A DNA stretch of 64,000 bases from IMG/VR virus record IMGVR_UViG_3300025120_000034, positions 7,554 to 71,553 of that record. One strand, 5' to 3'. Position 1 is the first letter of the stretch. Every line of letters begins with the position of its first letter. A model generated the notes under the pieces. That model did not search any database and was not told the DNA's origin. It was given only the letters and a program-made list of their open reading frames with translations. Below are positions 36,961 through 61,101 of the stretch, piece after piece. Source of the DNA: a virus. Made by a program: the position numbers and the translations under genes.

Positions 36961-39900
36961 TTAGTTTGTTTCTGAGTTATCTAGTGCTGAGGGTGTATAT
37001 ATTGCATTGACAGCATATAGTTCTTTCTCAGCTGTGTTGTCGTTTGTCAGTTTGAATTTCGCGTAGTAATCTCTCATCTGCTCACCGTTAATTACGTCTG
37101 ACGATACAGCAACAAGAGTATTACCAATCTGTCCAGTAGCCGCCCCAGAAAACCGTAATTTATTTCTGCCTAAAACAGCAGTAATTGTCAACCCTAAATC
37201 TTGCTCGCCGCTTCCTGATATAACTTTTACCGAATCACCAATCCCGAACGGTAGGTTACTTACCCTCCCTGTAAAGGTCACATCTAAAGAATTTCCAGAA
37301 AGAGCCGACACCTCGCCCAACACAACCCTTTCTGTGCCTACGGAATCATTAGAATCCGCTGCAACATCGTTAGGAATGTTAGTGTAGTAAATACCCTCCT
37401 TCTCCTCATACATAGCCTCTGGAATTGAGGTGGTTTGATTGCTGTTGGTTACAACACCAGCCCAAGTATCATTACCCTCAAGGCTTATTGCGTTGTAAAC
37501 TTTTACAGAAGATGGGTTTTTCTTAGAAACGATTTCAATCTCTGAGTTCTTCTGAGCACCGTAGAAATTATTTCTAGTCTCATTAACATTATGTCTGTAA
37601 ATCTGACCAGCTTCAAATGAAAAGAATCTATTATGAAGAGAGGAATACAGCTCTGGATTAAACGAATAAAAGCTTAACCAGAAGTTTTTATCTGTGCTGT
37701 AGGCCAAGGTCTTACCGTCATCGTCAACACCATCTGTAATCGTAATAGTTTTAGATACGTCAGAGGAGGCTCCTTTTTCTATTATGGTGGTAGAGAAGAT
37801 TATACTCCCATCAGCCATATTCATTTTAGCCACACCTCGGTACTTACCGTCTGATGTAATTACATCTGCTTTAAAATCTGAAGTGCTCGCACTTTTATCA
37901 GGACTAACAAAAGACGAACCTCTTTCGGTTAGCTTGTCAATAACCACTAGAGCATCACCAACAGAGTCCCATTCAGGAAGAAATGATACTGGAGTTATGT
38001 TTGTGTCGTCCCACTTAATTGGGTCGGTTGACCAAGAAAGCATATTAGAACCACCGACAACGGGCTTTATCTTACCCACAGCACCAGTAACCCTAGCATT
38101 AGCTGGAGGTTTAGGAACGTTTCCAACATTTAAAGTACCAAGAGTAATATCATTTACGTCTTGACCTTCGACAGTAACTATAAACTCATCATTTTCTGGG
38201 TCAATTCCACACGGAATCCTTGGGATAGAATCCCTGAGCAATAGGTCGGCAAATAAGCTTCCAAAGAACGCAGACATTTTAACCTCGCTTATGGGTTGAA
38301 TACCCTTAGACGACAAGGAGAAAACCTTACCAGCATCCATGTCGCAAAAGTATGTTACTCCAAACCTGTCTACCACAGACTCAGGATTTAATCCCGGACC
38401 AAAAGTTCCTGCAAAGTAAGTTTCAGTTCCTAATACGTTAGTGCTAGTTACCAGCATGCCATCTTTCCCTGCCGATTGAATAAGCGTCCTATCTATTGGT
38501 GTACTGCTAATCTTTTTTTCCTGCATAACAAGAAGTGATTCACCCTTGTCAATTATGGAACACACAGGACCGTTGATTGAGTTGTAATCTTTATAGGAAA
38601 ACAAAAGAGGGTTAAATGTGGAAAGATTCAATACGTTAGAGTCCGATACAAAAGGTGCGCTATATGTGATGGCTGTCGCCCTGCGTATTTCTTCTTGGTC
38701 TGGCGTTTCTATAAATGGCCTGCCAATCGATATGGCTTTTGAATCGAAGTAGTCGCTAACGGACTCGTCCTCTATGACAAATTTCCTGTAAAGCTGATTG
38801 TCAGGTATGGTCGGGTCGTATTTAAAAACAATAGTTTGACCACTGGGTGTATAGTCAGTCTTGGAGTTTCCTAATTGCTCTCTTATTCTTAAGTACATAT
38901 CACCCTTAGTGAGCGTCACCACGCCTTTATGAAGGCTGTTCGGGCTTCCCACGGCGTTATCTACGACACACGGGAATATAGCTCCGTCTGACACGTTTGA
39001 TGTGGTGAACGGCTGTCCTGAGTATACGGTATAGGTATACACCCCATTAGAGTTTGGTACTATACCTTCTATGAAAACATGCTCCCCAGAACCTGCACCT
39101 ATTATAAGCTTATCCCCTAAATACAACCTTGTAGTGGATGTGAAAATAGTAGGGCTTAATACCTGAATAGTAACCGCAGGGCTTACTGAATTCGAGCGGT
39201 CACCCGCATGAGTTCTTACACCGCCAACCTCCAAAATATCATACTGCTTTTCAATCTCGTAGTAAACCCTAGACTCTTCCTCAACGCCTCTCTTAGGTCT
39301 ACATATCTCCACTAAACAGTTTTGGGAGAAGAAGTCCTTTCCTACTAAGATGTCTCCTCTCTTAAAGTTAGAAATATTATTATCCCTAATCGTCAAATAC
39401 CAGCCAGTCCTTCTGTAGTTAGTCTCGTCTTCATCTGGGGAGTTTTGAGAAAGCCTTATAGGGTTCTCGTCATTGTCAGTATAGAACTTATATGAGGTTA
39501 TTTTAAACTCGTGAAGAGGTCTCTGTATATTACCTTCCGAATCTTCGTACTGAAGAATTCTCAGTATATCACCCTCATTATACTCGTAAGATTTACTAGC
39601 CCCCTTGAAGTCCTTATAAGAGTTAGACTTTCCCTCTAGCCCACGAAGAGAAATAAAGATTTGACCGTTAACACCCCCCTCCAGACCAGATAATACGGGC
39701 CTAGTTTTTACACCGTCATTAGAACGGATGTCTGTGAATGTTGTTTGCTTTCCCGTTGCGGCCTCGTTAACCAAGACCTGAAGAACCTCACTATAGGATG
39801 TGTTTTTAGAGTAGACGGGGGCCCATTTAGTTGCCCAACTTGGAGGCTCGTGTAATAATCTGAAGTCTATTTCTGTTCTACCATTATTACCTCCCGGTCT

Positions 39901-42225
39901 TTGCCCGAAATGCTTTACGCTTTTTTCCTCTAAGGGCTGTACGCCAGACGGTCTGTTTCTGTGGTCGTAATAAACGATACCAAAATCATGTGTAGCCCCA
40001 GCCTTAAAAGAAGTAACTGCTTCTCCATCCTGAGTAAAAATAGATATGTCGCCAGAGATAAAGTTATATTCTTCCCAATGACTTCTCAATGCACCTGAAC
40101 CTACACTATAATCACGAACAGTATATCCTGCTCCATTCTCCTGAGAACCTATACTTAATGATACTTTATCAGAAGTAAATAAATTCATCTGATGGTTGTA
40201 CCCACTTCCTTGGAAAATTGACCCGTTATTCGCTCCTACTCCATAGTAAAGATTCGCTGCAAGCTGAGCGTCGGTTCCGCCAACAAAATCATTTGTCACC
40301 GTAGTAGGTCCTACAGTGGTTGGTGCTAAGGCATAGTCGGTATCAAGGCTTATGTCGATACAACGAACCATGCATGTTACTTTTTGAGATTGTTGGTCGT
40401 ATGTAGCACTGTGAACCTTAAACTCACCAAAGCCTGACATCCAAGCTAGGAGACAATCGGCTTCTTGGGTGGTGGGCTGAATGCTGGGGAAACCAGCAGA
40501 TGTCCCAGAGAAAAATGCAGTTGCGCCAATCAGGTTTTGGTTCGGTCCTTCGGTTGAAGGGGTGAGACCTACCGTTGAGGATTCTAATTCATTAACTATA
40601 GCGGATGAAATAAATTCTCCAAAAGAATTAACGTCTTGAAAGTCTTGGCCTTGCGATGTCAAATTAAATTGCAAGGGATTCTGAAACTTAAGATTGCCTA
40701 TCCCAGACTGAATACTATCGGGGTTCAGTATAGTTACATTTTGACTGTGGATTTCCTCTCCGTCGTCGGCGTATGTAGTAGCCAACACACTGAATTGTGT
40801 GTTACTTGCGTTGCTATCTAAATCAGGGGAAATTCCAAACCTATCGCAAGACAAATTAAAGTTCATATTTATCTGCGAATCCGAAGCGTCAAATCCCTGT
40901 GAGGGGAAGTCAGATAAATCAATCTGAAAACTTATTCCGTTTGTAGTGGAATCCCCGTACCTAGCAAAGGTTAGTGACGGAGACAAACTCAGCCATTCTC
41001 CAGATGCATAAAAAGCATTCGTAGAGGTGCCTCCATAAATAGCTCTCCAAGAACTCTGAAACTGGTCTGATGCATAGGAGCCTACTCCAAGAGTTTCGGT
41101 AACGACACCGTTTGTACCGCCAACAACATCAATATTTATAGAAGAAGATGTTTCTATGTCGGGGTGATATACAGGGTATGAAAACACATCTGGCTGGGGT
41201 AGATTATCAAACCCTTCTAAATAGTTACCGTAAAACAGTCTGCTATTCGAAATAGCCTGTGCGGAAGCTACCCTAGGGACAGCGTCGTGAGTTCTATTAA
41301 CCTCTTCAGAGGAGACGTAGCTGTATATCTTGTCGTTTCTGAACGTAAATGTTTGCTCGGTTTGCTGCGGGTCATTACTAAGTTCCTTGACTTTGAAGAA
41401 TGCTCCGTCGTTATTTCGCCTAGCGAACACCCTAATCTTATCTACTGGGCCATCAGAATTTGAAACTGTTACAGCTAATTCATTGTTAAACGCACTAGCA
41501 AACTGAATAGAGGTTGAGTTAAACGCTAAGTTTGTGGGGCTCACGGCTAAAGGCGAGTAAGCGGAAATTGCACTTACCTCACCGTCATCATATATGTATT
41601 GATAGGCAAACTGAAAGCAATTATCCCTGAGGTTATTCTGCCCCACAGATTCGTTAGTTCCAAACTTAAAAGTAGGGACCGATTGAGGCGGTGGTTTACA
41701 AACAGTAAAGAATTTTTCCTTCTGTATGGATGTCCCTGAAGTCAAGTTCGGTCCATACCCGTTGTATAAAAGTCTAGTTGCGTTTATTTTTCTCGGCTCG
41801 TTTCTGTTGTCCGTGAAGTATAGTAGGTGTTCTTCAAATTGATTTATAATAACATCAGCTTTAATAAAACCGTCTCTACTAAAATTAAGAACGGGGTCTT
41901 GATAAAGTTTAATGTACTTGTCATCTATGAAGTCATACTTATATATACCGTGATTTAGATTTGAGTTGTAAACAAAGAAATAAATACACTTTCCAGATTC
42001 GCACGTTACCGCACCTACTGCTCTATTAGTCCCTGAGGGGATAGCATCATCGGTTGTAACCGGGTTTACAATAGTGTTTCCCTTTATATTTCTAACTATT
42101 CCTTGGTCACTTCCATCGTCAGGAGAGATTCGGATGTTAAGAGCATCGGTCATCTCGAAAGGCTTAACCAACCTCTCGTCCTCATCCTTGTTCAGATACT
42201 GGGGTACAAGCTTGTCAATAGCCAT
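36961..42225 (-). CDS. Tail nozzle / stabilization protein (1754 aa)
   Basis: LN.D.DERL..P....DALNIR, LYFTD..NEPRKIN, FQFAY.Y.Y.D.E.SA.S, RL.YGNY.EG.D, HDFGIVYYD...R, NPES, W.SFYSF.P, NFYG motifs typical of Bacteroidota podovirus tail proteins. Confidence 0.7.
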   Translation of the reverse strand: MAIDKLVPQYLNKDEDERLVKPFEMTDALNIRISPDDGSDQGIVRNIKGNTIVNPVTTDDAIPSGTNRAVGAVTCESGKCIYFFVYNSNLNHGIYKYDFIDDKYIKLYQDPVLNFSRDGFIKADVIINQFEEHLLYFTDNRNEPRKINATRLLYNGYGPNLTSGTSIQKEKFFTVCKPPPQSVPTFKFGTNESVGQNNLRDNCFQFAYQYIYDDGEVSAISAYSPLAVSPTNLAFNSTSIQFASAFNNELAVTVSNSDGPVDKIRVFARRNNDGAFFKVKELSNDPQQTEQTFTFRNDKIYSYVSSEEVNRTHDAVPRVASAQAISNSRLFYGNYLEGFDNLPQPDVFSYPVYHPDIETSSSINIDVVGGTNGVVTETLGVGSYASDQFQSSWRAIYGGTSTNAFYASGEWLSLSPSLTFARYGDSTTNGISFQIDLSDFPSQGFDASDSQINMNFNLSCDRFGISPDLDSNASNTQFSVLATTYADDGEEIHSQNVTILNPDSIQSGIGNLKFQNPLQFNLTSQGQDFQDVNSFGEFISSAIVNELESSTVGLTPSTEGPNQNLIGATAFFSGTSAGFPSIQPTTQEADCLLAWMSGFGEFKVHSATYDQQSQKVTCMVRCIDISLDTDYALAPTTVGPTTVTNDFVGGTDAQLAANLYYGVGANNGSIFQGSGYNHQMNLFTSDKVSLSIGSQENGAGYTVRDYSVGSGALRSHWEEYNFISGDISIFTQDGEAVTSFKAGATHDFGIVYYDHRNRPSGVQPLEEKSVKHFGQRPGGNNGRTEIDFRLLHEPPSWATKWAPVYSKNTSYSEVLQVLVNEAATGKQTTFTDIRSNDGVKTRPVLSGLEGGVNGQIFISLRGLEGKSNSYKDFKGASKSYEYNEGDILRILQYEDSEGNIQRPLHEFKITSYKFYTDNDENPIRLSQNSPDEDETNYRRTGWYLTIRDNNISNFKRGDILVGKDFFSQNCLVEICRPKRGVEEESRVYYEIEKQYDILEVGGVRTHAGDRSNSVSPAVTIQVLSPTIFTSTTRLYLGDKLIIGAGSGEHVFIEGIVPNSNGVYTYTVYSGQPFTTSNVSDGAIFPCVVDNAVGSPNSLHKGVVTLTKGDMYLRIREQLGNSKTDYTPSGQTIVFKYDPTIPDNQLYRKFVIEDESVSDYFDSKAISIGRPFIETPDQEEIRRATAITYSAPFVSDSNVLNLSTFNPLLFSYKDYNSINGPVCSIIDKGESLLVMQEKKISSTPIDRTLIQSAGKDGMLVTSTNVLGTETYFAGTFGPGLNPESVVDRFGVTYFCDMDAGKVFSLSSKGIQPISEVKMSAFFGSLFADLLLRDSIPRIPCGIDPENDEFIVTVEGQDVNDITLGTLNVGNVPKPPANARVTGAVGKIKPVVGGSNMLSWSTDPIKWDDTNITPVSFLPEWDSVGDALVVIDKLTERGSSFVSPDKSASTSDFKADVITSDGKYRGVAKMNMADGSIIFSTTIIEKGASSDVSKTITITDGVDDDGKTLAYSTDKNFWLSFYSFNPELYSSLHNRFFSFEAGQIYRHNVNETRNNFYGAQKNSEIEIVSKKNPSSVKVYNAISLEGNDTWAGVVTNSNQTTSIPEAMYEEKEGIYYTNIPNDVAADSNDSVGTERVVLGEVSALSGNSLDVTFTGRVSNLPFGIGDSVKVISGSGEQDLGLTITAVLGRNKLRFSGAATGQIGNTLVAVSSDVINGEQMRDYYAKFKLTNDNTAEKELYAVNAIYTPSALDNSETN

Positions 42226-47572: not shown

Positions 47573-47785
47573 TTAAGGCATCAAAGACGCTATCAGTGCT
47601 TTATCTGATTCTGATAGAACTACTTGCTGTTGAATAATTTCTGCTTCATCATCTGAAATAACGCCATTGTTATCATAGGATGTAATCATTGCCAATTTTA
47701 CCTGCAAATTGTAATCGCCTTCGACTATGTGTTGGACAACTAAATCCTCACCTAACAAGTCCACAACTGCTTTTATCTTGTTCAT
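47573..47785 (-). CDS. Hypothetical protein (70 aa)
   Basis: Coupled to the upstream gene. Confidence 0.6.
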   Translation of the reverse strand: MNKIKAVVDLLGEDLVVQHIVEGDYNLQVKLAMITSYDNNGVISDDEAEIIQQQVVLSESDKALIASLMP

Positions 47786-48642
47786 TATCCAACGTTTAAG
47801 TTACTATTACCTGCGTTATTACTGGTAGCACTCATTGGCCCAACGTGTGCCAATTCAGTGTAGTTTACTCCATCATTTGACCCTTCAAACAATAAATGAA
47901 AAGCGTACAGCACGTTCAAGTTCATGCTCTTAATGGTTGGAGGGGTGCTATAGGTTCCCGGCTCAAATTCAATTTGAAGGTATTTTGGAGTACCGCTTAT
48001 GCCCCAAAATCTCGTAGAAGTACTGCTGTCAAAAGCCTTGTACTTATAATTGGTTGAATACACAGCTGACGAGGTTAAAGCGATACCCGTTTGACTTGTA
48101 TTAGAACTAAGGTTTGTGGTTGGGTGATTTGTTCCTGTTTGACCCGCCCCCTCATACAAAGACCAGTCTCTTATAGATAACCATGAAGTACCGCTTGTCC
48201 CTTTGGTGGCGTTCGTGTTGGTCAAGCGGATATATCTATAAGCAGTGAAAGACGGCGTATAAGTCAATGTTAGTGCTGTACTTTGTATGTTATCCCCAAA
48301 CTCCTGAGCCTTGACTGTTACGGTGCGTTCTGCTGTGCTTGTGTTTGTATCGGTAAAGGTCATGACTGGCCCCAATGAATCATCGCCATTGTCCATAGCG
48401 TGATTTACATCTGCATCAGCAACGATTTCCGTACCGCCAATTGACACGGATACTGAATAATTAGGATTTGTATAGCTAGAGTGATTACTAATTATGACTG
48501 AACCCTGCCCAAAACCGAAGGAGATTGAAGCCGTCGGTGTGGTTGTAGTTGTACCACCACCACTGCTGGTTGCTATATCAACACCGCTTATTTTTTCAAT
48601 ATCAGCCATGTCTATTCCGCTGTACTTTTCAATATCTGGCAT
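47785..48642 (-). CDS. Putative fibre/receptor-binding protein with discoidin (F5/8C)-like C-terminus
   Basis: AYRYIRL, YKAFD.ST.T.W, YLQ.EF, F.GSNDG.N.T; N-terminal repeat DIEK.SG.D.A. Confidence 0.55.
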   Translation of the reverse strand: MPDIEKYSGIDMADIEKISGVDIATSSGGGTTTTTPTASISFGFGQGSVIISNHSSYTNPNYSVSVSIGGTEIVADADVNHAMDNGDDSLGPVMTFTDTNTSTAERTVTVKAQEFGDNIQSTALTLTYTPSFTAYRYIRLTNTNATKGTSGTSWLSIRDWSLYEGAGQTGTNHPTTNLSSNTSQTGIALTSSAVYSTNYKYKAFDSSTSTRFWGISGTPKYLQIEFEPGTYSTPPTIKSMNLNVLYAFHLLFEGSNDGVNYTELAHVGPMSATSNNAGNSNLNVG

Positions 48643-48646
48643 GCCA

Positions 48647-49981
48647 TTACGCTAATTCAATATGCTCGACAGAAGGGTTAAAATAAATAACGCTAGTGCT
48701 GACTGCGTGTCCAAGTATTCTTTGATAGCCCGTAGTTGGTGCGGTAGAAGTTACTTGACCCGAGCCATTCGAAGAAGAAGAAAACACCGTTTGACCCGCT
48801 GTGAGTTGAGCACTTACCAATGACGGGCGAACAAACCCCCTCAAGATGAATCCTGAACTCATTGTGCTTCCTACTGCCATACCTAAAAGGGAAATTTGAG
48901 AAGCTGCTACAGCTGTTGAATAAAGAGCCCAAGTTGTCCCGTTGTGGTAATATATCTTTCCAGCAACAACAGAGGTTCCAGAGCTCCCAAGAAAAGTAAT
49001 ATCGGCTCCAGCTCCATAATCGCCAGCAGAACTGATACCAGAGCTATGCTCTTGAATAAACTCATTTGCCGTGACTGGCCCATTTAGTTCGATTCCGCTT
49101 GACCCGCCAATAAGTGTCTGGGTAAACCCCCCGTTAAATACAGCAACATTGTTGGCATCTGCTTTAGCTAATACTCTAGGACTGCCGCCCGTGTTTTTAG
49201 CAATAAAAGACTCGTTATTATCAACTTGAATGCCACCCGAAGCAACAGCCAAATTGGTTCCGTCGTATGTCAGGTTAGCCTCACCCTCTAACGTGCTGGC
49301 AGTTCCAGAGCCTGTAATAAGGCTGTTGTCGGCGTTGTTGTTTATAGTGACCCCTCCGCCTGCGGCCTCTAAACTTATCTTAGCGGAAGAGTGGTCGTAT
49401 GTCAGTACGTAGTTGTCTTGACCCGAACCCACAGACTGATCGGCATCCAAAGTGTAGTTACCTAGTTTTACGTCCCCTGTCCCATTAGGCTCCAACACTA
49501 TATTACCGTTCGTTGCTGTGGTGTATATCTTTTTTATGGACAAGTCTAGATCAGCGCCTAGCTTTAGGTGGTCGTGGTTGTTGAACAACAGCTTTCCGCT
49601 AGTAGAAAGATTTAAATCAGTCCCGTCAACGATTACAGCATATCCAGATTTTCCAGTAAAGTCAGAAGCTGAAACCCCATCCAAGGCTGTCACTTTATCT
49701 GTACTCTTAATTAGAGTGTCTGGAGCTGCGTTTACAACAGCGTTTACAGCTGTAACAGCAGCGCTAACGGTGGTGCCAAAAACTGCATCGGAAGAATCAA
49801 CAAGTTGAGTGATGTCAAAATTATTCAACACCTTCCTGTTGGTGTCTGTGTCGGTCAAAATAATCCTACCCCCGCTAGTTCCTGCTGCCGCCTGAAGAAC
49901 TCCTGTTTCGTAATTAACAAACCTATTAGTGGTCTGTACGGTTACCAGGTTGTTTGTTTTGCTAATTATTACCTTCCCCAT
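48647..49981 (-). CDS. Putative tail-fibre-like protein (444 aa, mosaic)
   Basis: NG.I.L.PNGTG.V, INNNADN..ITGSGTA..L.GEANLT.DG and C-terminal R.LG.A......YFNPS modules typical of phage fibres. Confidence 0.6.
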   Translation of the reverse strand: MGKVIISKTNNLVTVQTTNRFVNYETGVLQAAAGTSGGRIILTDTDTNRKVLNNFDITQLVDSSDAVFGTTVSAAVTAVNAVVNAAPDTLIKSTDKVTALDGVSASDFTGKSGYAVIVDGTDLNLSTSGKLLFNNHDHLKLGADLDLSIKKIYTTATNGNIVLEPNGTGDVKLGNYTLDADQSVGSGQDNYVLTYDHSSAKISLEAAGGGVTINNNADNSLITGSGTASTLEGEANLTYDGTNLAVASGGIQVDNNESFIAKNTGGSPRVLAKADANNVAVFNGGFTQTLIGGSSGIELNGPVTANEFIQEHSSGISSAGDYGAGADITFLGSSGTSVVAGKIYYHNGTTWALYSTAVAASQISLLGMAVGSTMSSGFILRGFVRPSLVSAQLTAGQTVFSSSSNGSGQVTSTAPTTGYQRILGHAVSTSVIYFNPSVEHIELA

Positions 49982-49983
49982 AA

Positions 49984-51147
49984 TTAGTTGTTTGCTACAA
50001 AATTAATTTTAGTTCCCGTTTTAAGGTTTATGAACTCAGTTCCCCCAAAACTCTGAGCTTCTATGGTGAGCCTTATCTCGTCGTACGAAGCTGGATAGAA
50101 AGCGGTCAAAAAGGGAATAAGGCTTTCTGTTGCCGAATACTCCCACGACCCTGCCGTTGGATCCTCGTTAAGCTGCTGTGGAAAGTAATGTACGCCAGAA
50201 GCCTGCAAAGTATTGTTGTTGAAAAACTCAACCTTAATCCGTGGCATTATTTCTGAATAATTAGGAACGGTTTTATTTACGTTTAGCTTAATCGTGGCTT
50301 CGGCGACGTCAGGGATTTGACCAGTACCTAAAAAATTAGAAAGCAGAGTAAAGTTAGTTCCATCCGACAGGGTTAAATAATCATTAGCGTCGTTAAAACC
50401 GTTGTTAATCCCAGTAGATGTAAGGCCGTTAGTAAGATCGCTAGACTCAAACGTAATCGTTTTAAAGCTGAGTGCGTCGCTCGCCCCAGTGAAGTCAACG
50501 GGACTCCCATCGCTTTGAAAGTCTGCTGTCCAGTCTATAGTAAAGGGGGCTCCAATCCCAAAATTCCCAAGAAACAACAGTAGGTCAGCCGTAGTGACTA
50601 CGCCGTCACCATTAAAGTCTCCCAAGATGTTTGATCCAGCTGCCGAATATGTATCAACGGTTCCTAAGCCTTGGTCTATTAAGACCTGAGCGAAGGCGGT
50701 TGTGAACCACCCAAAGAAATCGTTCTGAGAAAGCTTCTTGTACGTATCAGTGTCTGGATTATAAAGCTGAAAAAAATACTTATCGTCGTCTGCCGCAGTC
50801 AAAGTAGCAGGAGTTACAACCCCGTACTCATCCGTATTGTGAGGAATTAAAAGCCAGTTAGATCCTGTTTGCCAAGGAGTGTCGCCCATGTCCGCAGACG
50901 TGTAAACACGAAGCTCATTGTTGCTTTTAGTGTACGCTAGATAACCTTCTTTTCGACTTGAGGAGGCTACACCGTTTCTTGCATTGACATCAGCAAAAAC
51001 ATTGTAATCACTAGACCCCGAAGCCGCCTCCCAAGCAGCACCTCCAGCCCCATCCGAAGCTAAAACGTATCCGTCGCTAGAACTCTCAGAGTTTATATCG
51101 CCAGCAGTTACAGAGCCAGACGTTAATATTTTTTTCCAGGTCGCCAT
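49984..51147 (-). CDS. Putative structural protein with dockerin-like motif (387 aa)
   Basis: MATWKK N-terminus, DGYVL.SDG.G...W fibre repeat, GDFNGDGVVTTADLL.FLGNFG. Confidence 0.6.
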   Translation of the reverse strand: MATWKKILTSGSVTAGDINSESSSDGYVLASDGAGGAAWEAASGSSDYNVFADVNARNGVASSSRKEGYLAYTKSNNELRVYTSADMGDTPWQTGSNWLLIPHNTDEYGVVTPATLTAADDDKYFFQLYNPDTDTYKKLSQNDFFGWFTTAFAQVLIDQGLGTVDTYSAAGSNILGDFNGDGVVTTADLLLFLGNFGIGAPFTIDWTADFQSDGSPVDFTGASDALSFKTITFESSDLTNGLTSTGINNGFNDANDYLTLSDGTNFTLLSNFLGTGQIPDVAEATIKLNVNKTVPNYSEIMPRIKVEFFNNNTLQASGVHYFPQQLNEDPTAGSWEYSATESLIPFLTAFYPASYDEIRLTIEAQSFGGTEFINLKTGTKINFVANN

Positions 51148-51155
51148 TTTTTAGC

Positions 51156-51326
51156 TTAAGACTTTTTAAGCTTTGTTTCTTCTTTTTCCTGAATGCCTTG
51201 AAGTCTAGTAAATTCTTCATCCAGTTTAGTCATAAGGTTAGCTACCGTTGGGGCATCTACGGCCTTGATGCTAGCCGCTTTTACTACTTCGTTTAGGAAG
51301 TAAACTTCGTTGATTTCTAATTTCAT
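51156..51326 (-). CDS. Small hypothetical protein (56 aa)
   Basis: Manual translation MKLEINEVYFLNEVVKAASIKAVDAPTVANLMTKLDEEFTRLQ...; fills an operon gap. Confidence 0.6.
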   Translation of the reverse strand: MKLEINEVYFLNEVVKAASIKAVDAPTVANLMTKLDEEFTRLQGIQEKEETKLKKS

Positions 51327-51349
51327 TTGAATTGAATTAAGGTTTGAAA

Positions 51350-51523
51350 TTATTTAGCCTTCAGTTGATTCTGAAGTTTATTTACTACGTCTGCCAACAA
51401 AAGTACGTCTTTTCCTTCAAAAGTGCTATCGTGAAGGCACTTTAAAATAAACGTAAGCTCCTGCTGGGTCAGGGTGTCAGTGGTCACCCCACCGACATCT
51501 CTGCCCTTGCCAAGAATTCCCAT
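51350..51523 (-). CDS. Small hypothetical protein (57 aa)
   Basis: Manual translation MGILGKG...LTQQELTFILKCLHDSTFEGKDVLLLADVVNKLQNQLKAK; coupled to the stop of 51523..52608. Confidence 0.6.
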   Translation of the reverse strand: MGILGKGRDVGGVTTDTLTQQELTFILKCLHDSTFEGKDVLLLADVVNKLQNQLKAK

Positions 51524-52608
51524 TACTGAACTCTCACGTAGAGTGCGCCATCTGCGTTAGATGCTGATTGAGCAAAGAAGAAAGATCCTACTCCCGCAGC
51601 ATCACCTGTTGGTGCATCAGCCGAAGTGAGGTTGAAATCCATAATGGAAATTTCAAAATCAGTCTGGGCAACATCGGTTGCTGTAGAGTAATCAGCAGTA
51701 TCTCTTAATGTCCAACCAGTAAGGTTTTGACCTGTTTTGCTCCAGTTGAGTGCAGCAAACATAGTTTCGCTTGAGCCATGATGGGACGTAAGCGTCAAAC
51801 CACCGCCATTAGCACCATCATTCGCTAGGCCTGCCCCTGTGTCGTTAGTGGCATAGGCGCTGTCTGGGTTTGCAAGAACAACGTTTTTATCTTCGACAAC
51901 AAGTGTTTCAGTCTGAACGGAAGTGGTAGTTCCAGTTACAGTGAGATTACCAGCTATAGTTGTATTACCAGTGATGTCCGCGCCACCCGTAGTAACGGTC
52001 AAGCCAGTAGCCGCAGTAATTGTAGATGTTGAGGCAATACTACCTGGAGCGATAAACGCAGCAGGAGTGCTAAACACAACGCTATTAGTACCTGTGGTCG
52101 TAGAAATCTGATTAGCCGTTCCCGCTAAATTAAGCGTCTCTGAGTTTAAGATTTCTTGAGCGGCCCCTGAATCTCCAGAAACGTCGAGAGCAAAACCAGC
52201 CGCTGTCACTGTCGCAATTTCGCTGTCCACGTAGCTCTTAATGGCCTTGGCGGAAGCAAGTGTGTCATCATTCGCAGAAACACTAGAAAGGTTAGCGTCA
52301 ATGGTGAGAGCTGTAGGTGCTGCGGCACTAGCCGTTGCGTTACCGAGAACGGTAGCGGCGGCAATATCTGCAATCTTAGCGAGGGTGACGTTTGAGTCAA
52401 GGATCTTTGCCGTAACAACCTTGTCGGCCCCAATAGTAACCGCACCAGTGGTTGCAATCGTAACATCACCACTAACGGATACGTTGTCAAAGGAGTCTAC
52501 GCCGTCATGAACTAAAATTTGAGCTGACGATGCAGATGATACTGATGCGTCTGATAAGTCATTGATGGCGACGGCACCCTCAACTAATACTTTTTTCCAT
52601 GTTGCCAT
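51523..52608 (-). CDS. Putative tail-fibre-like protein (361 aa)
   Basis: VSGDVTI...G..TI....V..AKI, DDTLASAKAIK.YVD, GNLTV.GTTT.V.T..L.VED repeats; TATATTTG element at 52643-52650. Confidence 0.65.
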   Translation of the reverse strand: MATWKKVLVEGAVAINDLSDASVSSASSAQILVHDGVDSFDNVSVSGDVTIATTGAVTIGADKVVTAKILDSNVTLAKIADIAAATVLGNATASAAAPTALTIDANLSSVSANDDTLASAKAIKSYVDSEIATVTAAGFALDVSGDSGAAQEILNSETLNLAGTANQISTTTGTNSVVFSTPAAFIAPGSIASTSTITAATGLTVTTGGADITGNTTIAGNLTVTGTTTSVQTETLVVEDKNVVLANPDSAYATNDTGAGLANDGANGGGLTLTSHHGSSETMFAALNWSKTGQNLTGWTLRDTADYSTATDVAQTDFEISIMDFNLTSADAPTGDAAGVGSFFFAQSASNADGALYVRVQ

Positions 52609-52661
52609 GATATGCTATTTTTTTATTTTCTAAATATTTCAACAAATATACAACGTATTTA

Positions 52662-53252
52662 TTAGGTCACCCCGAAGTACAGGTTATCAGCATCGTCCGC
52701 ATACATACCCCCCTCGAAAGCTGTAGGGGCATCGGCAGTGTGATCGAACTGCTTAAACTGTACAAGACCGTCTAGATTTATCTTTCCAGTAGATGCTGGG
52801 GATGGAGTAAACTTTATCGTTTGATCTGTTGTAGCCTCTATCTTAAACACAGACCCTGTAGAGGACATCTCCACAGAGTTGTTAAATTCAATTTTGTCGC
52901 TTTCGCCAAGCTCAATATCGAAATTGTTTGTTTGAAGGTTAGCCCCTAGCTGAGGAGATAAGTCTTCTACTATGTTTTGCAAACCACCACCAATAATGGT
53001 TGCTAGGTCTGTCCACCCTGTGGCTTTTGTAGCAATGTTGTTCTCATCCACTAAGAGGTAAAACTTAGAGTCACCCTGGTGGTAGACTATAGTAACGTAC
53101 TCCTTGAGCTGATCGCTTACAGACGTAAGACCAGTTAAACCAGCGTCGTTAGCAACCACCCTGACACCGCCTCTAACGAAGTTAGAATCAACAAAAGCTT
53201 TTGCTGAGTTGTTATGGCCGTATTCGCCCGCCCTTCCTAGTTGTACTGGCAT
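52662..53252 (-). CDS. Putative structural protein (196 aa)
   Basis: VED.SPQLG.NL..N motif common in fibre proteins. Confidence 0.6.
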   Translation of the reverse strand: MPVQLGRAGEYGHNNSAKAFVDSNFVRGGVRVVANDAGLTGLTSVSDQLKEYVTIVYHQGDSKFYLLVDENNIATKATGWTDLATIIGGGLQNIVEDLSPQLGANLQTNNFDIELGESDKIEFNNSVEMSSTGSVFKIEATTDQTIKFTPSPASTGKINLDGLVQFKQFDHTADAPTAFEGGMYADDADNLYFGVT

Positions 53253-53256
53253 GAGT

Positions 53257-54933
53257 TTATGAAATGCTTAGGAATTGGTTATTCAGTGCGTTTGTAGAAT
53301 CACTTCTGTAAACGGTATAAGTACTGGAAACTCCATACCTGTTTTCAAGCGTATAGGTACCAAGATCATTGAAAGCCCCAAGAGTGGGAGATACACCGTC
53401 CAAGTTCATTGTAGATATGTGATTATTACCTGGGTAGAATATATACATAAACTTATTGCTCGTTTGAATAGTGTATGTATTCGTATTCCCTATGCTTGAA
53501 GGATAAGACCCTGTTTTTATCTCTCTTTCATTGTTGCCGCTGTCGTCACCACCAAACGCTGCATAAACAGTTTGAACGGCGTTCTGGGAAGATCCAGTAG
53601 TCAATGCTGTTGTGTCGAAACACACCTGATAAGAGTAGTAGTAGTTTATGTTAGAAAAGTCACTAGAGGTGTCAGACCCGTAAGTGCTGTCAACAACAAC
53701 TCTATATCTATGGGGTGTGGCCTCCGCCGTTAAATCAGTAGATCCGTCTGTAGCAACAGTAATTGAATCCGTGTTTATAGCGAGCGAGATATTATTCTCA
53801 GTGGAACCATTTCCTAAAGAGCTGAGATCCGTAGTAGAGTCTGGAGTTGTTATCTCCCTGTAATTGCTTCCTACTTCAAATTGAACAACAGAGTCAATTA
53901 GCGGATCATAAAGCTCATCCCTTCTCACGTCATAACGAAGAGTAGACTGAACATCACCATACTCCCTGGTTGTAGAGGTTGTGCCTGTTGCAGCAGAAAT
54001 GGTTGAATTGCTCCTAGTTATTTGCTTGTCGCTAATAAGAGGCGAGTCAAAACTATTGGCTGTTGTGAATTCGTTTGCTGTCTGTTCAGTTGTACCGCTG
54101 GTGCTGTCCGTTACCCTAAGTCGAAAATGGAATACGTTGTTGCTAGCCCAGGCCTCTCCAGTGCTATAGACCTTTGAGAGATTCGAGGCCCCAAAAGTAA
54201 CCTCAGAGGATGTGTACGATTGAACCGTTGTCCATGATCCAGTAGGGGTTGACTGAGTATTAGCAAGTTGGTACTCAAGTACAGCGGTTCCCGTAGCGCC
54301 TTGGTTGGCGATGCCAAAGTTTATAGAAGATACAGTTACAGAAGATGCGCTTGAAGGGTGCTGCCAATCAGGTCCAGAAAGGCTAAAGCTAGGGGTTGGG
54401 TTAATGGCGTCCGTAAACGCATCAACTAAAAGTTCTGAAGCTGTCTTTCCATTAGCGGGAATGGTGTCTCCGTTTTTGTATTTCCCAAAAGTTTTCACGA
54501 CCCCTGAAACGGTGGGCATGTTTGCCACATAGTTCTGAGTAAAAGTCAATTGGCCTCCGTCCGCTCCGTCTGCTCCAGCGGCTCCATCAGCACCAGCAGG
54601 ACCAGCAGGTCCCTGAGCACCATCAGCTCCAGCGGCTCCAGCAGGCCCCTGAGCGCCTTGAGCTCCGTCAGATCCAGCAGCCCCAGCAGCCCCAGCAGCC
54701 CCAGCAGGACCAGCAGGACCTTGAGGTCCTTGAGCGCCAGTAGGCCCTTGAGCGCCAGTTGCTCCAGCAGGTCCAGCGCCAATAGCTCCAGCTACAGAAA
54801 TGTTATTATTTGCAGCCTGATTTAAAACTACGACCTTAGTGTCAGTGCCTCCCTTTACGACAGATACTTTAATGATATCTCCGTTCTCACTAGATATCTT
54901 TATGCTTTTTGGTTGTTCTACACTTATCGGCAT
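53257..54933 (-). CDS. Collagen-like repeat fibre protein (558 aa)
   Basis: Uninterrupted Gly-X-Y run (GAGPAGATGAQGPT...GADGADGG) followed by a beta-rich domain. Confidence 0.8.
   Translation of the reverse strand: MPISVEQPKSIKISSENGDIIKVSVVKGGTDTKVVVLNQAANNNISVAGAIGAGPAGATGAQGPTGAQGPQGPAGPAGAAGAAGAAGSDGAQGAQGPAGAAGADGAQGPAGPAGADGAAGADGADGGQLTFTQNYVANMPTVSGVVKTFGKYKNGDTIPANGKTASELLVDAFTDAINPTPSFSLSGPDWQHPSSASSVTVSSINFGIANQGATGTAVLEYQLANTQSTPTGSWTTVQSYTSSEVTFGASNLSKVYSTGEAWASNNVFHFRLRVTDSTSGTTEQTANEFTTANSFDSPLISDKQITRSNSTISAATGTTSTTREYGDVQSTLRYDVRRDELYDPLIDSVVQFEVGSNYREITTPDSTTDLSSLGNGSTENNISLAINTDSITVATDGSTDLTAEATPHRYRVVVDSTYGSDTSSDFSNINYYYSYQVCFDTTALTTGSSQNAVQTVYAAFGGDDSGNNEREIKTGSYPSSIGNTNTYTIQTSNKFMYIFYPGNNHISTMNLDGVSPTLGAFNDLGTYTLENRYGVSSTYTVYRSDSTNALNNQFLSIS
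54553..54790 (-). repeat. Collagen-coding 9-bp-period repeats
   Basis: Tandem GCCCCAGCA x3, GGACCAGCA and CCTTGAGCG units. Confidence 0.8.
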
Positions 54934-54942
54934 AATAATATC

Positions 54943-55335
54943 TTAAGCTGTTTCTGACACGTCTTCAATAACTCTTACCGTTCCGTAGATTAAAGTGGTT
55001 ACAACTGCTCCTGACTTCTGTTCGACATCATAAGCATAGAGTCCAGATGGCATCGTCTTCATTGTGGTCGCGGCCAAGGTGAGATCAATGTACTTTGCGG
55101 TAACGTCGTCAGAATCTGCCGTTACCTCCATCACGAATTGCACAACAGGGTCGGAGGTGTTAGCCACTGGGGTGCCCGTGTCGGAATTTCTTACCTCCAT
55201 CAAAAAAACATCTCCAGCGGTAAAACCAACAGTATCGTCAGCATTGGTTATATTAAGTCTCAAGGAAAAAGTGTCACCTTTCCTGCAAGTGATGTCAACC
55301 CTTTCAGATGTATCTAAGTTTATTTTTGTAGCCAT
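54943..55335 (-). CDS. BppU-like/adaptor structural protein (130 aa)
   Basis: DI.CRKGDTF, M.VR, G.Y.YD.E....V.T...G...V.EDV. Confidence 0.55.
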   Translation of the reverse strand: MATKINLDTSERVDITCRKGDTFSLRLNITNADDTVGFTAGDVFLMEVRNSDTGTPVANTSDPVVQFVMEVTADSDDVTAKYIDLTLAATTMKTMPSGLYAYDVEQKSGAVVTTLIYGTVRVIEDVSETA

Positions 55336-55336
55336 C

Positions 55337-57718
55337 TTATTCGTTGATTATTTGTGGTGTTTCATCCCCCTGTCTTTGAGCAATAAGCTTACTCTGCTCA
55401 GCAGACTGCTTCTTAACTCTATCGTCTTTTCGATCCTCTTTAAGGACTTCAAGCTTTTCTTTAAAGTTGTCGTCAGTTTCTTTAAACCCAAGGGTTGCCT
55501 TAGCTTTAATGATTTCGATCTCCTTCCTGAACCCGTGTTTTACCTCTTCTAGTTGAGCCTCTAGCTGAGCCTTAAGCTGCATCTCTTGGGATTTTAGCTG
55601 GGCCTCCATTTGCATTTCTTGCTGTCTAGCCTGAGAAGCAGCCTGTGCTGATTGCTGCTGAACCTGAGCTTGCTGCTGAGAGTTCTGTTGGGCCATCTGC
55701 TGGTTGCTAGCCATTCGCTTCTTTCTTCTAACGATTAAAAGCCTTTCAGCCTGGTTTACGTCCCTAAGCTGTCGTATAGCAAGGGCGTCCTCAAGGTCTA
55801 TCTCTTTTTGAGACAAGGCTATCTGTATGTTCTGCTCCAAGAACTGCCTTTCGTTTTCCTCCATCTCCTTCACAACCTTGACGCCGAAATTAAACATCGA
55901 CAGGTTCCTGAAGGAAGACAAAACTTTCATGTTCTCCTTACCGACAGCATTCTCATACATAGAATAGAGAATAGAATCTGGATGAATAACCTGCAAGCAC
56001 TTTACCACATCGCTACAAACCTTCTTGTACAAAACCATAGAGGAATTCGTGATGTCATATATAGCGTTGTTTGCAGCGGCAAGAGCTTGTTGCCTGACGC
56101 CTACAAGGGCGTCACCCTTAGGTGAAGAGGCGTCCATAACCTCGTTGATTCCTGTGGAGTCTCGGATCATCCTGAGGTAGTGGTTATATAAACCAGTTAG
56201 CTCGTTGATATTACGAATGCTGTTGCCGATCTCCCGAATAGGGGGATTTTGAAAGCCTCCTTCTGGGTTCTTGCTTCTATAGTAGAACACACCCGTCTGC
56301 TCGTATATGTCGTGCAGCTCAAGCGGCTGAAGCTCTCCACCCTTTCCTAGCTGTACGTTTTCCAGCCCCTCAATATCAATGATGATACCGTCTGGCTTTG
56401 CCTTCGCTACAGCCTGTTGAATCTTTAAGTGAGTAAGCTGAAGTTGATCGGCGAACCCGATGCAGCTGTCCACCATAGACTTAGGCATCATGTCCATCAT
56501 GTTTGTAGCGCAAACAGAATAAGACAGGGATGCCTTTGTTATGTCGTGGATGTTTTTCGGTATGTTGGTTTTCTTGCCATACCCAAAGACCATATCACAA
56601 CCAAGGATGTAGTATCCACCGTAAACACATGTGTTATCTAGTCGCACGGAGTCTCTATTGAAAACAGAGTTTTGTGGTTGACTATAGTTGTCCCCTTTGT
56701 CGTAAAACCCTACGTTTCCGTACTTGTTTTCTTTTGACTCGTAATAGGTTGAGTCTACCGATAGAAACTCAAATTCAAGCACCTTTACAGTATGCTCCTC
56801 CATGTCCATGCCAGGTCTGTTTGAAGTTTTATTATACATCCCAGATGTATTGTTCTTCTGACCAGAGCTAGCCACCTTCTTGTAGTCCTCTTCGGTTAAC
56901 TCATTCCCAGCAAGTCTTTTAAGCTCAGCGATAGGCATTGTTTTTACATGACCAGCATAAGTCATGTCCCCGAAAGAAGGGTCTTCTGTGTAGCTGTGAA
57001 TAAAGTTAGACGGATCAACGTATTCGGTTTTAATCCCGTAGCTAGGGTCGTTAGTTCTTTTCACAACAGCCATACCAAGTATGGTCATATCGTTTACACA
57101 CCTTCTGAAAATAGAATCATTAAAGTCGTTCCACTCCAGAGTCAGGTTGGTAGCTATCTGGGCGGCAATTTCAGAAGAAGCCTTAACGTTGGTGCCCATA
57201 AATATTTCAGCCTCCTCAAGGGTTTCTGGAATCGCTTCGGGATCGCCAGCCACTTCAACTCCCAGTTTGCTTTTGATACCCTGAAGAGCAGCCTTAGACT
57301 TTACGGCAAACTCAATCTTCTTTTTCTCTAAGTCCTTCTCCGAGGTAGATAAAGGGTCGATTGCCTCCAGGTTTGGGTAAGGAGACAAAGAAAGAATCTT
57401 ATTTACTACAATGCGGACAAACTTTGGAAGAATTGGGACTGGGGTAAAGTCCAGGTTCAACATACTTCCATCGCCGTTGTTAGGATCAAGAGACGTAAGC
57501 AAAGACCTGTATATGGCTGTGTCTTGGGTTCCGTTAGCGTACTTTCTGTTCTTTTCGAAAGTTCGGTTCCTGTTCTTGTAGGTGGACCCGTCTTGATCCA
57601 TTTTACCCCACTGCTGATATATAGCCTTAGCGTATCCTAGCCCGTACTTCTTTCCTCCTTTTTCTTCTGGAGGGCTAAGCGGATTAGGAAAGCCTGATTT
57701 TTTGTTGTTGATGTTCAT
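55337..57718 (-). CDS. Portal protein, copy B
   Basis: ~793 aa directly downstream of TerL, with a Gln-rich coiled-coil C-terminal barrel as in podovirus portals; ATG at 57718; promoter TATATTTG at 57750-57757. Confidence 0.85.
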   Translation of the reverse strand: MNINNKKSGFPNPLSPPEEKGGKKYGLGYAKAIYQQWGKMDQDGSTYKNRNRTFEKNRKYANGTQDTAIYRSLLTSLDPNNGDGSMLNLDFTPVPILPKFVRIVVNKILSLSPYPNLEAIDPLSTSEKDLEKKKIEFAVKSKAALQGIKSKLGVEVAGDPEAIPETLEEAEIFMGTNVKASSEIAAQIATNLTLEWNDFNDSIFRRCVNDMTILGMAVVKRTNDPSYGIKTEYVDPSNFIHSYTEDPSFGDMTYAGHVKTMPIAELKRLAGNELTEEDYKKVASSGQKNNTSGMYNKTSNRPGMDMEEHTVKVLEFEFLSVDSTYYESKENKYGNVGFYDKGDNYSQPQNSVFNRDSVRLDNTCVYGGYYILGCDMVFGYGKKTNIPKNIHDITKASLSYSVCATNMMDMMPKSMVDSCIGFADQLQLTHLKIQQAVAKAKPDGIIIDIEGLENVQLGKGGELQPLELHDIYEQTGVFYYRSKNPEGGFQNPPIREIGNSIRNINELTGLYNHYLRMIRDSTGINEVMDASSPKGDALVGVRQQALAAANNAIYDITNSSMVLYKKVCSDVVKCLQVIHPDSILYSMYENAVGKENMKVLSSFRNLSMFNFGVKVVKEMEENERQFLEQNIQIALSQKEIDLEDALAIRQLRDVNQAERLLIVRRKKRMASNQQMAQQNSQQQAQVQQQSAQAASQARQQEMQMEAQLKSQEMQLKAQLEAQLEEVKHGFRKEIEIIKAKATLGFKETDDNFKEKLEVLKEDRKDDRVKKQSAEQSKLIAQRQGDETPQIINE

Positions 57719-57763
57719 TTGCAATGAGTCGAGTTCTTATAACTCAATGCAAATATAGTAAAA

Positions 57764-59884
57764 CTAGGAGTGCCACACTTTAGGCTTGAAAGTCCTTATA
57801 AACTGCTTGTTTGTGAAACTAGATTGCTTCTTTTCTTGCTTAACTTTTTGAGCGGCTAAAAGGGCTAGACCAGAACTTATAGTAAGGTCAAACTTAGTCC
57901 TGTTGTCTATCTTGTAGCCAATCCAATCTTCTAGGGTCTTATTAAAGTACATGTTTCCGAACTCGTCGGACTCTGGCTTGATGCCTACGTGGTTATGTAT
58001 GTAAGCCTCAATTGCCTGAGCGTGAGACTGTATTACATCCTGGGAGTTAGATGGTATGCCTTTGGTTCTAACGTTTTTGGATGAACCAGGAGTTTTCAGG
58101 AAGTCGGGGCGATCCATTAAGTATCCGTCGTAACCTCTTGATTCAAAGTACCTTACGATACCGTACTTATTGTTCTCTACAAGTAAAGGATACCCGTAAA
58201 AGAAAGCGCACATTAAAACGTCTTCGTAAAATATACTGGCTAAATCTGGACGGGAGGCATATTCCGCAACGAACATATTGGCAGGGCCTTCCATGTTGAA
58301 CTTGTTGTACATGTGTAAAGCGCCCTTAGATCCTCTGCCGTCAACTGTTGAATCCAAGTCGTAGGAGTCAACACCGCCGCAACCTATATGTCCGTTTGGG
58401 GCAACCTTCTTGCCTCCTTCTTCTTTCTTTACGTTCTTGTTTTTAGGCATCCAGGAAACCCTAAACCTGCCGTTTGGGTCAGGAGAAAAAGCCACCTCCT
58501 CATCTTTTTTAACCCATACAAAGTTGCCTTTTACTACAGGATTAGGAAACAAGTCGTCGTTGTATTCTATCTGTTGGTAAATCTTACCCAAATTAAAAAG
58601 ACTTCCCTGAATGCTATCTCTAAACGCCTCGTCCTCAGTAAAGGGGAATTGACGTACTATTTCGTTTAGCTCGGAAGGGTCGTCTTTAAATGACTGGCGA
58701 TCATTCTTAAGGTATCGTTTGCTGCCTTCTTCGATAGGATCCCCGTCTATACCTTGTATGTTTTGGGGAGGATCATCAACAATGGAATTGCCGTATACGT
58801 CGAAAAAACCTTCAAGAGCATCATAGGCTGGGATGAATATTCTGTATAATCCAGATCTAGTTCGTCCGTTGTTGTTTCTTTCAGTAGGCTTTGAGTCTTT
58901 CCAAAGCTCTCTGTATTCGCTACCGCCTTTACTCATTGGGTTAACGGTAGACCCTACAAGGGCCTTCCCAACAATCCTCTTACCGACTATTAAACAGGTT
59001 CTTTCTATCCTCCAAGCCTCTCTGATGTCAGTGGGCTTCTCCCACTTACCAGCTTCGTCAAGATATAGCATGTGAAGCTTTTCCCCGTCATAAGCGTTAT
59101 TAGTGGTGTTCTTCCAGTTGATAACCGTATTAAGAGCATCACCCCTATGGGATGTTTTATTGTTTTTGGTTATACGCTTCGACGGTTCACGGAATGCCAA
59201 CTCCATGCGGGGGTTTGTAGTACCGTCCTGGATGGGTTTGAAAAAGAATGGATAGCTGCGAAAGATCGCAACCACCTTCTTCATGAAAATGTTCTCCTGC
59301 GAGTCTTTACCAGTTTTCGACTGTATGCCAAGAAGCTTCTCTTTAACTTGACTAGCTTCATCCACCAAGACAGCAGAGCATATGTTAGTGTAGCCAGAAC
59401 GACGACACTTAGTATAAAGCTGACCGAAACAACGAGGGTCAACTTCACAAGCAGCCATGTGCGTAAAGATGTCTTTTTGGAAAGAGAGGTATGATGGATA
59501 TCCGACATCAATTTTAGACCATTGTAGAAACATATAGTGTCTCCCTGTAATATACGTAGGTTCCCCATTATTGTAAAACCATAAACCGTCGCGCCTACGC
59601 TGAAACTCTTGTTCGATGTAAGAACGAAACTTGTTCCGAAACTCGGCAGGTTTTTCGAACCACTCATCCATGCTGCGTATCCTTTGCATTTCCTCTGGCA
59701 TAGGTGCGCGTTTCCACATTTGCAGCTTCTTTGGCTGGTCATGGAAGAGGATTTTCGATTTGAGCGGTTTCTTTGGAAGGACCACGAGTAGCCCGTGGAG
59801 CTCGACAACTTCTCCTTCTGTAACGTTAGGGTCGATCTTAATCCCTTTAGTTTCATAACCCTTTATATCTGTTAAAACGGACAT
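57764..59884 (-). CDS. terL: Terminase large subunit, copy B
   Basis: 706 aa; same motifs as copy A (KCRRSGYT, LDEAGKW, GGVDSYD). Confidence 0.92.
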   Translation of the reverse strand: MSVLTDIKGYETKGIKIDPNVTEGEVVELHGLLVVLPKKPLKSKILFHDQPKKLQMWKRAPMPEEMQRIRSMDEWFEKPAEFRNKFRSYIEQEFQRRRDGLWFYNNGEPTYITGRHYMFLQWSKIDVGYPSYLSFQKDIFTHMAACEVDPRCFGQLYTKCRRSGYTNICSAVLVDEASQVKEKLLGIQSKTGKDSQENIFMKKVVAIFRSYPFFFKPIQDGTTNPRMELAFREPSKRITKNNKTSHRGDALNTVINWKNTTNNAYDGEKLHMLYLDEAGKWEKPTDIREAWRIERTCLIVGKRIVGKALVGSTVNPMSKGGSEYRELWKDSKPTERNNNGRTRSGLYRIFIPAYDALEGFFDVYGNSIVDDPPQNIQGIDGDPIEEGSKRYLKNDRQSFKDDPSELNEIVRQFPFTEDEAFRDSIQGSLFNLGKIYQQIEYNDDLFPNPVVKGNFVWVKKDEEVAFSPDPNGRFRVSWMPKNKNVKKEEGGKKVAPNGHIGCGGVDSYDLDSTVDGRGSKGALHMYNKFNMEGPANMFVAEYASRPDLASIFYEDVLMCAFFYGYPLLVENNKYGIVRYFESRGYDGYLMDRPDFLKTPGSSKNVRTKGIPSNSQDVIQSHAQAIEAYIHNHVGIKPESDEFGNMYFNKTLEDWIGYKIDNRTKFDLTISSGLALLAAQKVKQEKKQSSFTNKQFIRTFKPKVWHS

Positions 59885-60072
59885 TAATAGCTCTGACCGT
59901 GTGAGTTCATTCTGCCCAACGAAGGTACACCTTCTTTAGGGTTTTTAATCTCCATTTGTTCACCGCATTCACACTGCCCTTCAGGGTAGTAAACGCTACC
60001 GCCCTTAAATTTCATGGTAAGGCTTCTTACAGATCTCTCTGCTTTACATTTTTCGCAAATTAAGTCTGGCAT
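59884..60072 (-). CDS. Small zinc-ribbon protein, copy B
   Basis: CEKC...CECG; homologue of 3167..3352. Confidence 0.75.
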   Translation of the reverse strand: MPDLICEKCKAERSVRSLTMKFKGGSVYYPEGQCECGEQMEIKNPKEGVPSLGRMNSHGQSY

Positions 60073-61100: not shown

Positions 61101-61101
61101 A

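Follow-up and report, generated by a model that had tools for sequence, protein, structure and literature searches.

Opposite restriction-site signatures in one marine viral record probably mark an assembly walk through more than one related phage

How can a single viral record lack two short palindromes over most of its length and carry them at normal frequency in the remainder? This question is raised by IMG/VR virus record IMGVR_UViG_3300025120_000034, which is 71,553 bp long and of which positions 7,554 to 71,553 (64,000 nucleotides, referred to here as the window; contig coordinate = window coordinate + 7,553) form the stretch under study. The two sites, GATC and CCWGG, switch from absent to present inside a 444-amino-acid (aa) tail-fibre gene, and a preliminary description made from the letters alone had taken this switch as the junction of two genomes joined at a shared fibre module. 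The explanation favoured here, which we hold with a probability of roughly 85%, is that the assembler walked through more than one co-occurring related marine phage in making this record, running once around the genome of one of them (phage A) and then into part of another (phage B). The connection from A to B would then exist only in the assembly graph.

By script count, all 58 GATC sites of the window lie at or after position 49438 (the first being 49438, 49549, 50160, 50436, 50633 and 50861), and all 23 CCWGG sites at or after 49945 (followed by 51136 and 52043), with every position listed in the preliminary description proving correct. Neither site occurs in contig bases 1–7,553, which precede the window. 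Across contig 1–56,990, no GATC is observed against 190 expected under a Markov model, or 214 from base composition, and no CCWGG against 72 expected; with both counts at zero, the left 49 kb is therefore nowhere near the expected frequency. The final 14,563 bases have 58 GATC against 54 expected, together with the 23 CCWGG. Counts per 2 kb change as a step and not as a gradient, again in agreement with the earlier account, and guanine-plus-cytosine content is flat at 41–48% across the boundary. The two copies of the TerL gene in the record reflect the same difference, copy A having no GATC or CCWGG and copy B, rightly described beforehand as rich in these sites, having 8 GATC and 4 CCWGG.

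The avoidance on the left is visible in codon choice. In 10 open reading frames (ORFs) of the A side, Asp before a codon starting with C is written GAC 52 times and never GAT, against 263 GAT and 218 GAC elsewhere, and in seven ORFs of the B side the same context holds 19 GAT and 14 GAC. Pro before Gly is CCG (7) or CCC (5) in 12 of 12 cases on the A side, and CCA (2) or CCT (2) in all four cases on the B side. The spelling of Asp-Pro as GAC-CC and of Pro-Gly as CCG-GG or CCC-GG on the left, noticed at first by eye, is thus borne out by the counts, and suggests that avoidance has been kept up mostly through synonymous codon choice with coding retained.

What the preliminary description overlooked is that the right part of the record has a complete avoidance of its own. 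CCGG occurs 77 times on the left, all within the circular map of phage A set out below, and not once on the right, where 22–34 would be expected in the last 14,563 bases. Of the two restriction histories proposed at first, the left one, avoiding GATC and CCWGG, holds, whereas a right part free of restriction does not. Each of GATC, CCWGG and CCGG is absent from the side that avoids it, and a palindrome that is absent or far below its Markov expectation is what restriction-site avoidance looks like. Three 6-base palindromes also have no copies in phage A (contig 1–56,990), these being CTGCAG (Markov expectation 9.5), CCATGG (6.8) and CTCGAG (5.8).

The start of the record returns inside it. Contig 1–201 aligns to contig 55,920–56,120, with the first 127 bases exact and the first mismatch at base 128; the 74 bases that follow the exact tract contain five single-nucleotide polymorphisms (SNPs), after which identity drops to ~60%. 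The exact repeat, contig 1–127 and contig 55,920–56,046 (window 48,367–48,493), closes a circle of 55,919 bp, phage A, and beyond this circle 15.6 kb follow on a different branch, phage B. Twelve gene pairs from contig 56,200–69,644 and contig 275–13,605 stand in the same order at 28–84% aa identity; the record has two TerL matches, and the second TerL and second portal are 72% and 59% identical in aa sequence to the first copies. Five near-complete relatives (G001–G005; 55,069–58,403 bp, CheckV completeness 91–100%, against 71,553 bp here) have one TerL each, and all five share the gene order TerL-portal-...-fibre-g106-g362. A homologue of the 285-aa tail gene that holds the 127-base repeat is detectable in only two of the five, G001 and G004, and lies directly after the fibre gene in both, which is the order that closing the circle of A predicts; the fibre373-tail285 adjacency is also found in contigs L082 and L083. 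The idea of two joined genomes survives in so far as two phages are present, but not as one genome with a junction, since the record consists of the complete 55.9-kb circle and a further 15.6 kb, and both TerL and portal are present twice.

A genuine genome of 71.5 kb, in which 15 kb of packaging and fibre genes had been duplicated long ago and had since diverged, would account for the doubled genes as well, and would be in keeping with the record being a single contig in which all ORFs are intact in both copies of the duplicated region. It is nevertheless highly improbable, as the relatives are 55–58 kb with single copies, the two copies fall into different TerL clades with opposite site signatures, and the exact 127-base re-entry closes a circle of normal size.

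The assembly walk would instead start inside the 285-aa tail gene of A, run once round the 55,919-bp circular map, re-enter the 127-base tract and exit on the other branch into the related, co-occurring phage B, which would add 15.6 kb where fibre, portal and TerL genes occur again in divergent form. A belongs to a clade purged of every GATC and CCWGG and B to one purged of every CCGG, and the step in site content would fall where A-type sequence ends and B-type sequence begins. The record has the features of an over-extended contig, being longer than the genomes of its group, with hallmark genes that are doubled and divergent, and with a repeat of k-mer length leading from its start to its interior. 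In the Joint Genome Institute metaSPAdes workflow the largest k is 127, and the CheckV paper (PMC8116208) states that the length of repeats at contig ends is often that of an assembler k-mer and that chimeras formed from closely related viruses escape detection. Compared with the artefacts treated there, this record is not a concatemer of a single genome, the second pass being a relative at 60–72% nucleotide (nt) identity, and k-mer-frequency checks would for this reason miss it. The record as a whole has no direct terminal repeat in the form of a simple end overlap, and its CheckV completeness is 100%.

The opposite signatures of the two parts are not peculiar to this record. In a TerL survey with both copies, 81 loci were examined out of 583 IMG/VR stretches encoding relatives. 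GATC and CCWGG are both lacking, with CCGG present, in 27 of the 81 loci, and these are exactly the loci whose TerL shares 82% identity or more with copy A; CCGG alone is lacking in 39, another combination of sites is found in 11, and all three sites are present in four. On a TerL tree (FastTree, midpoint root, 87 sequences, high-scoring segment pairs of at least 600 aa) the signature types form clades and the signature follows the tree, with copy A in the clade free of GATC and CCWGG, adjoining L103, and copy B in the CCGG-free clade, adjoining G004. Whole genomes repeat the pattern: G001–G003 have 0 GATC, 0 CCWGG and 78–130 CCGG, and G004 and G005 have 184 and 236 GATC, 75 and 43 CCWGG, and 0 CCGG. 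Avoidance is therefore common to relatives, extending over 27 of 27 loci of the copy-A clade and three genomes for GATC and CCWGG, and over 39 loci and two genomes for CCGG. Nucleotide identity of the B segment to the 55-kb relative G004 is 91% over 10 kb, and that of A to G001–G003 is about 70–74%. The repeat, the duplicated genes and these clade-wide signatures are all matters of direct observation. Further combinations were seen in sub-clades of the same phage group, with five loci lacking GATC and CCGG while keeping CCWGG (L128–L132); five loci lack CCWGG and CCGG with GATC kept (L153, L155, L157, L161 and L165), and one lacks CCWGG only (L152).

As for the cause of avoidance, no Dam-, Dcm- or N6/N4-type methyltransferase domain (PF02086, PF00145, PF01555) was detected in the record or in four relatives (0 of 5), other families not having been searched. 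The difference between the clades is therefore not accounted for by self-methylation through these families, and its likeliest cause is different host restriction enzymes, with avoidance presumably reflecting selection by Type II enzymes of the host, cutting GATC and CCWGG in the case of A, or CCGG in the case of B. Total or near-total loss of sites is given in Rusinov et al. 2018 (PMC6286503) for about one-tenth of viral genomes. The present phages resemble the virulent phages in that text, in that short palindromic Type II sites are wholly eliminated from a non-temperate double-stranded DNA phage, but differ from what it describes in that related clades of one uncultured marine group have alternative all-or-none sets, namely GATC with CCWGG, CCGG, GATC with CCGG, and CCWGG with CCGG, and in that single bases are toggled, as from CCAGG to CCGGG, between cassettes that are otherwise near-identical. 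Phage A also encodes a 306-aa protein (window 10979–11899, + strand) whose PHROG match (7245, E 8e-71) carries the annotation anti-restriction protein, and active anti-restriction may thus operate in A alongside site avoidance.

Several observations weigh against a connection made by the assembler alone. The match with k = 127 is circumstantial. Natural recombination between the lineages is clear at fine scale, as the fibre-tail cassette of A (contig 1–1,150 and 55,095–56,181) is 91–99% identical to the CCGG-free G004 and L082 with flanks at ~68%, and a real A/B recombinant is consequently not absurd. Among 158 loci of at least 8 kb, 15 have a patch of 2.6–8 kb free of sites where at least 10 would be expected. 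Lastly, the 944 bp that lead from the end of the 127-base tract up to the first GATC contain neither GATC nor CCWGG, for which P = 0.016 under B codon usage, and passing from A to B at the 127-mer therefore needs either chance or an ancestry free of GATC in this piece. The probability comes from codon resampling calibrated on B ORFs (which themselves have 34 and 14 sites, the resampled values being 30.9 and 13.0), and a local second-order Markov model gives a milder expectation of 0.9 GATC, 1.4 CCWGG and 3.3 CCGG in the piece.

The first of these possibilities to be considered is a real, recent recombinant, in which the GATC- and CCWGG-free backbone of A would have acquired a packaging-and-fibre module of ~15 kb from the CCGG-free lineage with its sites not yet purged. 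The record would still over-run the circle of A in this case, but the local junction would lie in a real molecule. Exchange between the lineages is documented by the cassette just described, the tail gene of the second pass is a fine-scale mosaic, and patches of 2.6–3.5 kb without sites occur in GATC-rich relatives, twice near-identical in two samples (L137 and L145). On the other hand, none of the five near-complete relatives and none of the 27 and 39 typed loci mix signatures over tens of kb, a genome with 58 GATC and 77 CCGG would be exposed to cutting in both kinds of host, and the hybrid tail-gene sequence is found in no other contig (0 matches in exact-pattern scans). We consider such a recombinant unlikely, and the stricter form of it, in which the lineages would have recombined so recently that restriction had yet to purge the 58 GATC and 23 CCWGG, slightly more unlikely again; if it were real, the tempo of site elimination would be directly measurable. 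GATC-free patches in GATC-rich contigs were located at L137 80–2807, L145 444–3058, L134 1947–5462 and L065 1–8218, and L137 and L145, which come from different samples, have the same 2.7-kb GATC-free patch. Judging from these sequences, natural mosaics on a small scale, with parts that differ in site content, may exist.

The exchanged cassettes themselves bear on how long foreign sites would last. Within cassettes that are 94–100% identical, the differences in sites are single-base toggles (Table 1), which shows that cassettes pass from one clade to another and that their re-coding falls on precisely these sites. The few sites in the exchanged cassette of A have all been toggled away already, pointing to fast purging and against a recombinant that retains its sites, and, as far as the sequences go, this implies that selection on the sites acts fast.

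Under the assembly walk, the position of the join is about evenly balanced between two places ~1 kb apart, the 127-base tract (48,367–48,493) and the fibre hinge (~49,330–49,437). Site content brackets the boundary to window 47,961–49,438, and a Poisson change-point analysis peaks at 49,438, its one-sided 95% bound being 48,730. The 127-base tract, lying within the 285-aa tail gene ~1 kb to the left of the first GATC, is the only repeat seen to link A and B. To the right of it the tail gene is mosaic (48,493–48,567), its first ~75 nt being 88–90% identical to the CCGG-free L001 and L006, the five SNPs that come next being common to L082 and L099 but not A; the remainder of the gene is identical to A. 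At the hinge, nt identity to L001 and L002, which are the two nearest relatives of full length, falls from ~82–92% to 50–75% at window ~49,330–49,400, and similarity to L003–L005 begins. A breakpoint in homology, as a natural mosaic would have, is accordingly present at the proposed junction, both at the hinge (~49,330–49,400) and in the tail gene. The boundary that the preliminary description placed in the fibre module is a real mosaic boundary, as the drop in identity to L001 and L002 attests, but the only observed repeat between A and B lies in the neighbouring 285-aa gene.

Placing the join at the hinge would involve a strain A′ with a different fibre cassette (48,494–49,437), the branch at the 127-mer being true strain variation and the assembler crossing from A′ to B at the hinge. 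The lack of GATC and CCWGG in the 944-bp piece speaks for this, and its lack of CCGG, for which P = 0.05 under B usage, is nothing unusual in A-type sequence (about 0.12–0.27); the homology drop to L001 and L002 at ~49,330–49,400 adjoins the first GATC, and A-type genomes carry fibre cassettes of B ancestry purged of sites. It needs, however, a third haplotype and an unseen identical tract of at least 127 bases at the hinge, and a hinge 27-mer matched one contig only, the CCGG-free L001. All relatives of the C-terminal part are also CCGG-free, and the part of the piece where the tail gene begins resembles CCGG-free contigs. We regard this arrangement as tenable, at somewhat less than an even chance. 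No k-mers were found to separate the lineages besides words with GATC, CCWGG or CCGG, the pools having been chosen by these same sites and not being independent, and the 944-bp piece, which holds none of the discriminating words, cannot therefore be assigned to A or B.

Exact-pattern scans of metagenome contigs gave no matches for the 127-mer or the hybrid tail-gene sequence, and a 45-mer of the hybrid tail gene had no matches in metagenome and viral contigs. The first 60 bases of the 127-mer matched a single viral contig, L082, which has an A-like gene order. The same junction was found in no independent assembly by exact-pattern scans, in which the record's own entry or very near records may be hidden.

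Modular exchange of the receptor-binding parts of tail fibres takes place at conserved hinges. The 444-aa fibre fits this pattern, with an N-terminal part common to L001 and L002, a C-terminal part common to L003–L005, and a switch at the hinge motif; what sets it apart from hinge exchange in general is that the hinge here lies within 1 kb of the point of assembly re-entry. Over its whole length the gene groups with CCGG-free relatives, at 72% (L001) and 63% (L002) aa identity, compared with 34% for the fibre of A itself, and its seven closest relatives (L001–L007) all have 0 CCGG, with GATC and CCWGG flanking the fibre gene on both sides. It has no Pfam or PHROG match. In comparisons of window 46–53 kb with deposited phages, megablast returned no match and blastn only 75 bases of the fibre hinge (window 49274–49348), which match a hypothetical gene in Prochlorococcus phage P-GSP1 at 80% identity. 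As the hinge motif is encoded in 401 IMG/VR stretches, this fibre joint is very widespread among marine phages. The features discussed are listed in Table 1.

Table 1. Positions of the segments, genes and site differences discussed (window coordinates unless the contig is named).
Feature	Position	Strand	Remarks
Phage A in the window	1–48366		Continues from contig 1–7553; 0 GATC, 0 CCWGG
Portal copy A, C-terminal part (829 aa whole; start contig 8592)	2–1039	-	
TerL copy A, 704 aa	1053–3167	-	Clade with 27 of 27 loci lacking GATC and CCWGG, among the loci listed
285-aa tail gene	47785–48642	-	Hybrid in the second pass: first ~75 nt, then five SNPs, then identical to A
Last CCGG of the record	47958–47961 (contig 55,511–55,514)		A: CCGGG; near-identical, CCGG-free L082 and L083: CCAGG
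127-base tract	48367–48493		Identical to contig 1–127; two continuations branch here
944-bp piece, uncertain origin	48494–49437		3′ two-thirds of the fibre gene and start of the tail gene; 0 GATC, CCWGG and CCGG
444-aa tail-fibre gene	48647–49981	-	Residues ~165–250 are the hinge motif common to hundreds of marine phage fibres
Fibre hinge (PNGTGDV...YVLTYDH module)	49330–49486	-	Homology to L001/L002 drops and homology to L003–L005 begins; first GATC at 49438
Phage B fragment	49438–64000		58 GATC, 23 CCWGG, 0 CCGG; gene order as in contig 275–13,605
Portal copy B, 795 aa	55337–57724	-	phrog_6547, E 1e-192
TerL copy B, 706 aa	57764–59884	-	phrog_6681, E 2e-211; sister to G004 TerL in the tree
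Toggle	contig 55,514		A: CCGGG; L082, L083: CCAGG
Toggle	contig 373		A: CCGAG; L083: CCAGG
Toggle	contig 55,314		A: GGACTT; L083: GGATCT

The large ORFs of the record are phage structural and replication genes, encoding TerL, portal, a collagen-like fibre, virion proteins, a primase-helicase and an exonuclease. Two giant ORFs lie in the structural module of phage A, one of 3,322 aa (window 24280–34248, - strand) with no PHROG match and one of 1,754 aa (window 36961–42225, - strand) that belongs to virion structural protein families. The collagen-repeat fibres of B (558 aa, window 53257–54933, - strand) and A (728 aa, contig 3486–5672, - strand) have only their first 84 residues in common, at 73% identity, and by sequence appear to be another case of an N-terminal anchor with a swapped distal part.

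The best GenBank matches of TerL copy A, 117 records, are mostly from phages with Flavobacterium and Cellulophaga hosts, at 41–46% aa identity. Podoviruses of Flavobacteriia, such as the Flavobacterium 'elemo' phages and the Cellulophaga phages, are like A in having a similar genome, at ~60 kb, but share with it only this 41–46% in TerL; a Flavobacteriia-type host for these phages would be compatible with this. Public runs with parts of the region, 24 of which were listed, are marine or seawater metagenomes, and the share of sampled words found in four runs was 0.97 (X1, which may be the run behind the record), 0.46 (X2), 0.32 (X3) and 0.20 (X4), these shares being uninformative on the join. 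With more than 580 TerL matches in IMG/VR, this group of uncultured marine podoviruses is abundant.

A record of the IMG/VR type that is scored 100% complete may thus be one whole phage and a quarter of another, and this one ought to be split at window ~48.4–49.4 kb before its use for taxonomy, host prediction or gene content. Chimeric over-long viral contigs and site avoidance are both already known, and the clade-level restriction barcodes and single-base toggles are a new example of a known phenomenon, not a new kind of system. For the biology of the group, these barcodes are more useful than the junction itself: they are a cheap test for chimeric contigs and could help to assign host groups once the restriction enzymes of the hosts are known, while cassettes swapped between clades are re-coded at precisely the sites that each clade avoids.

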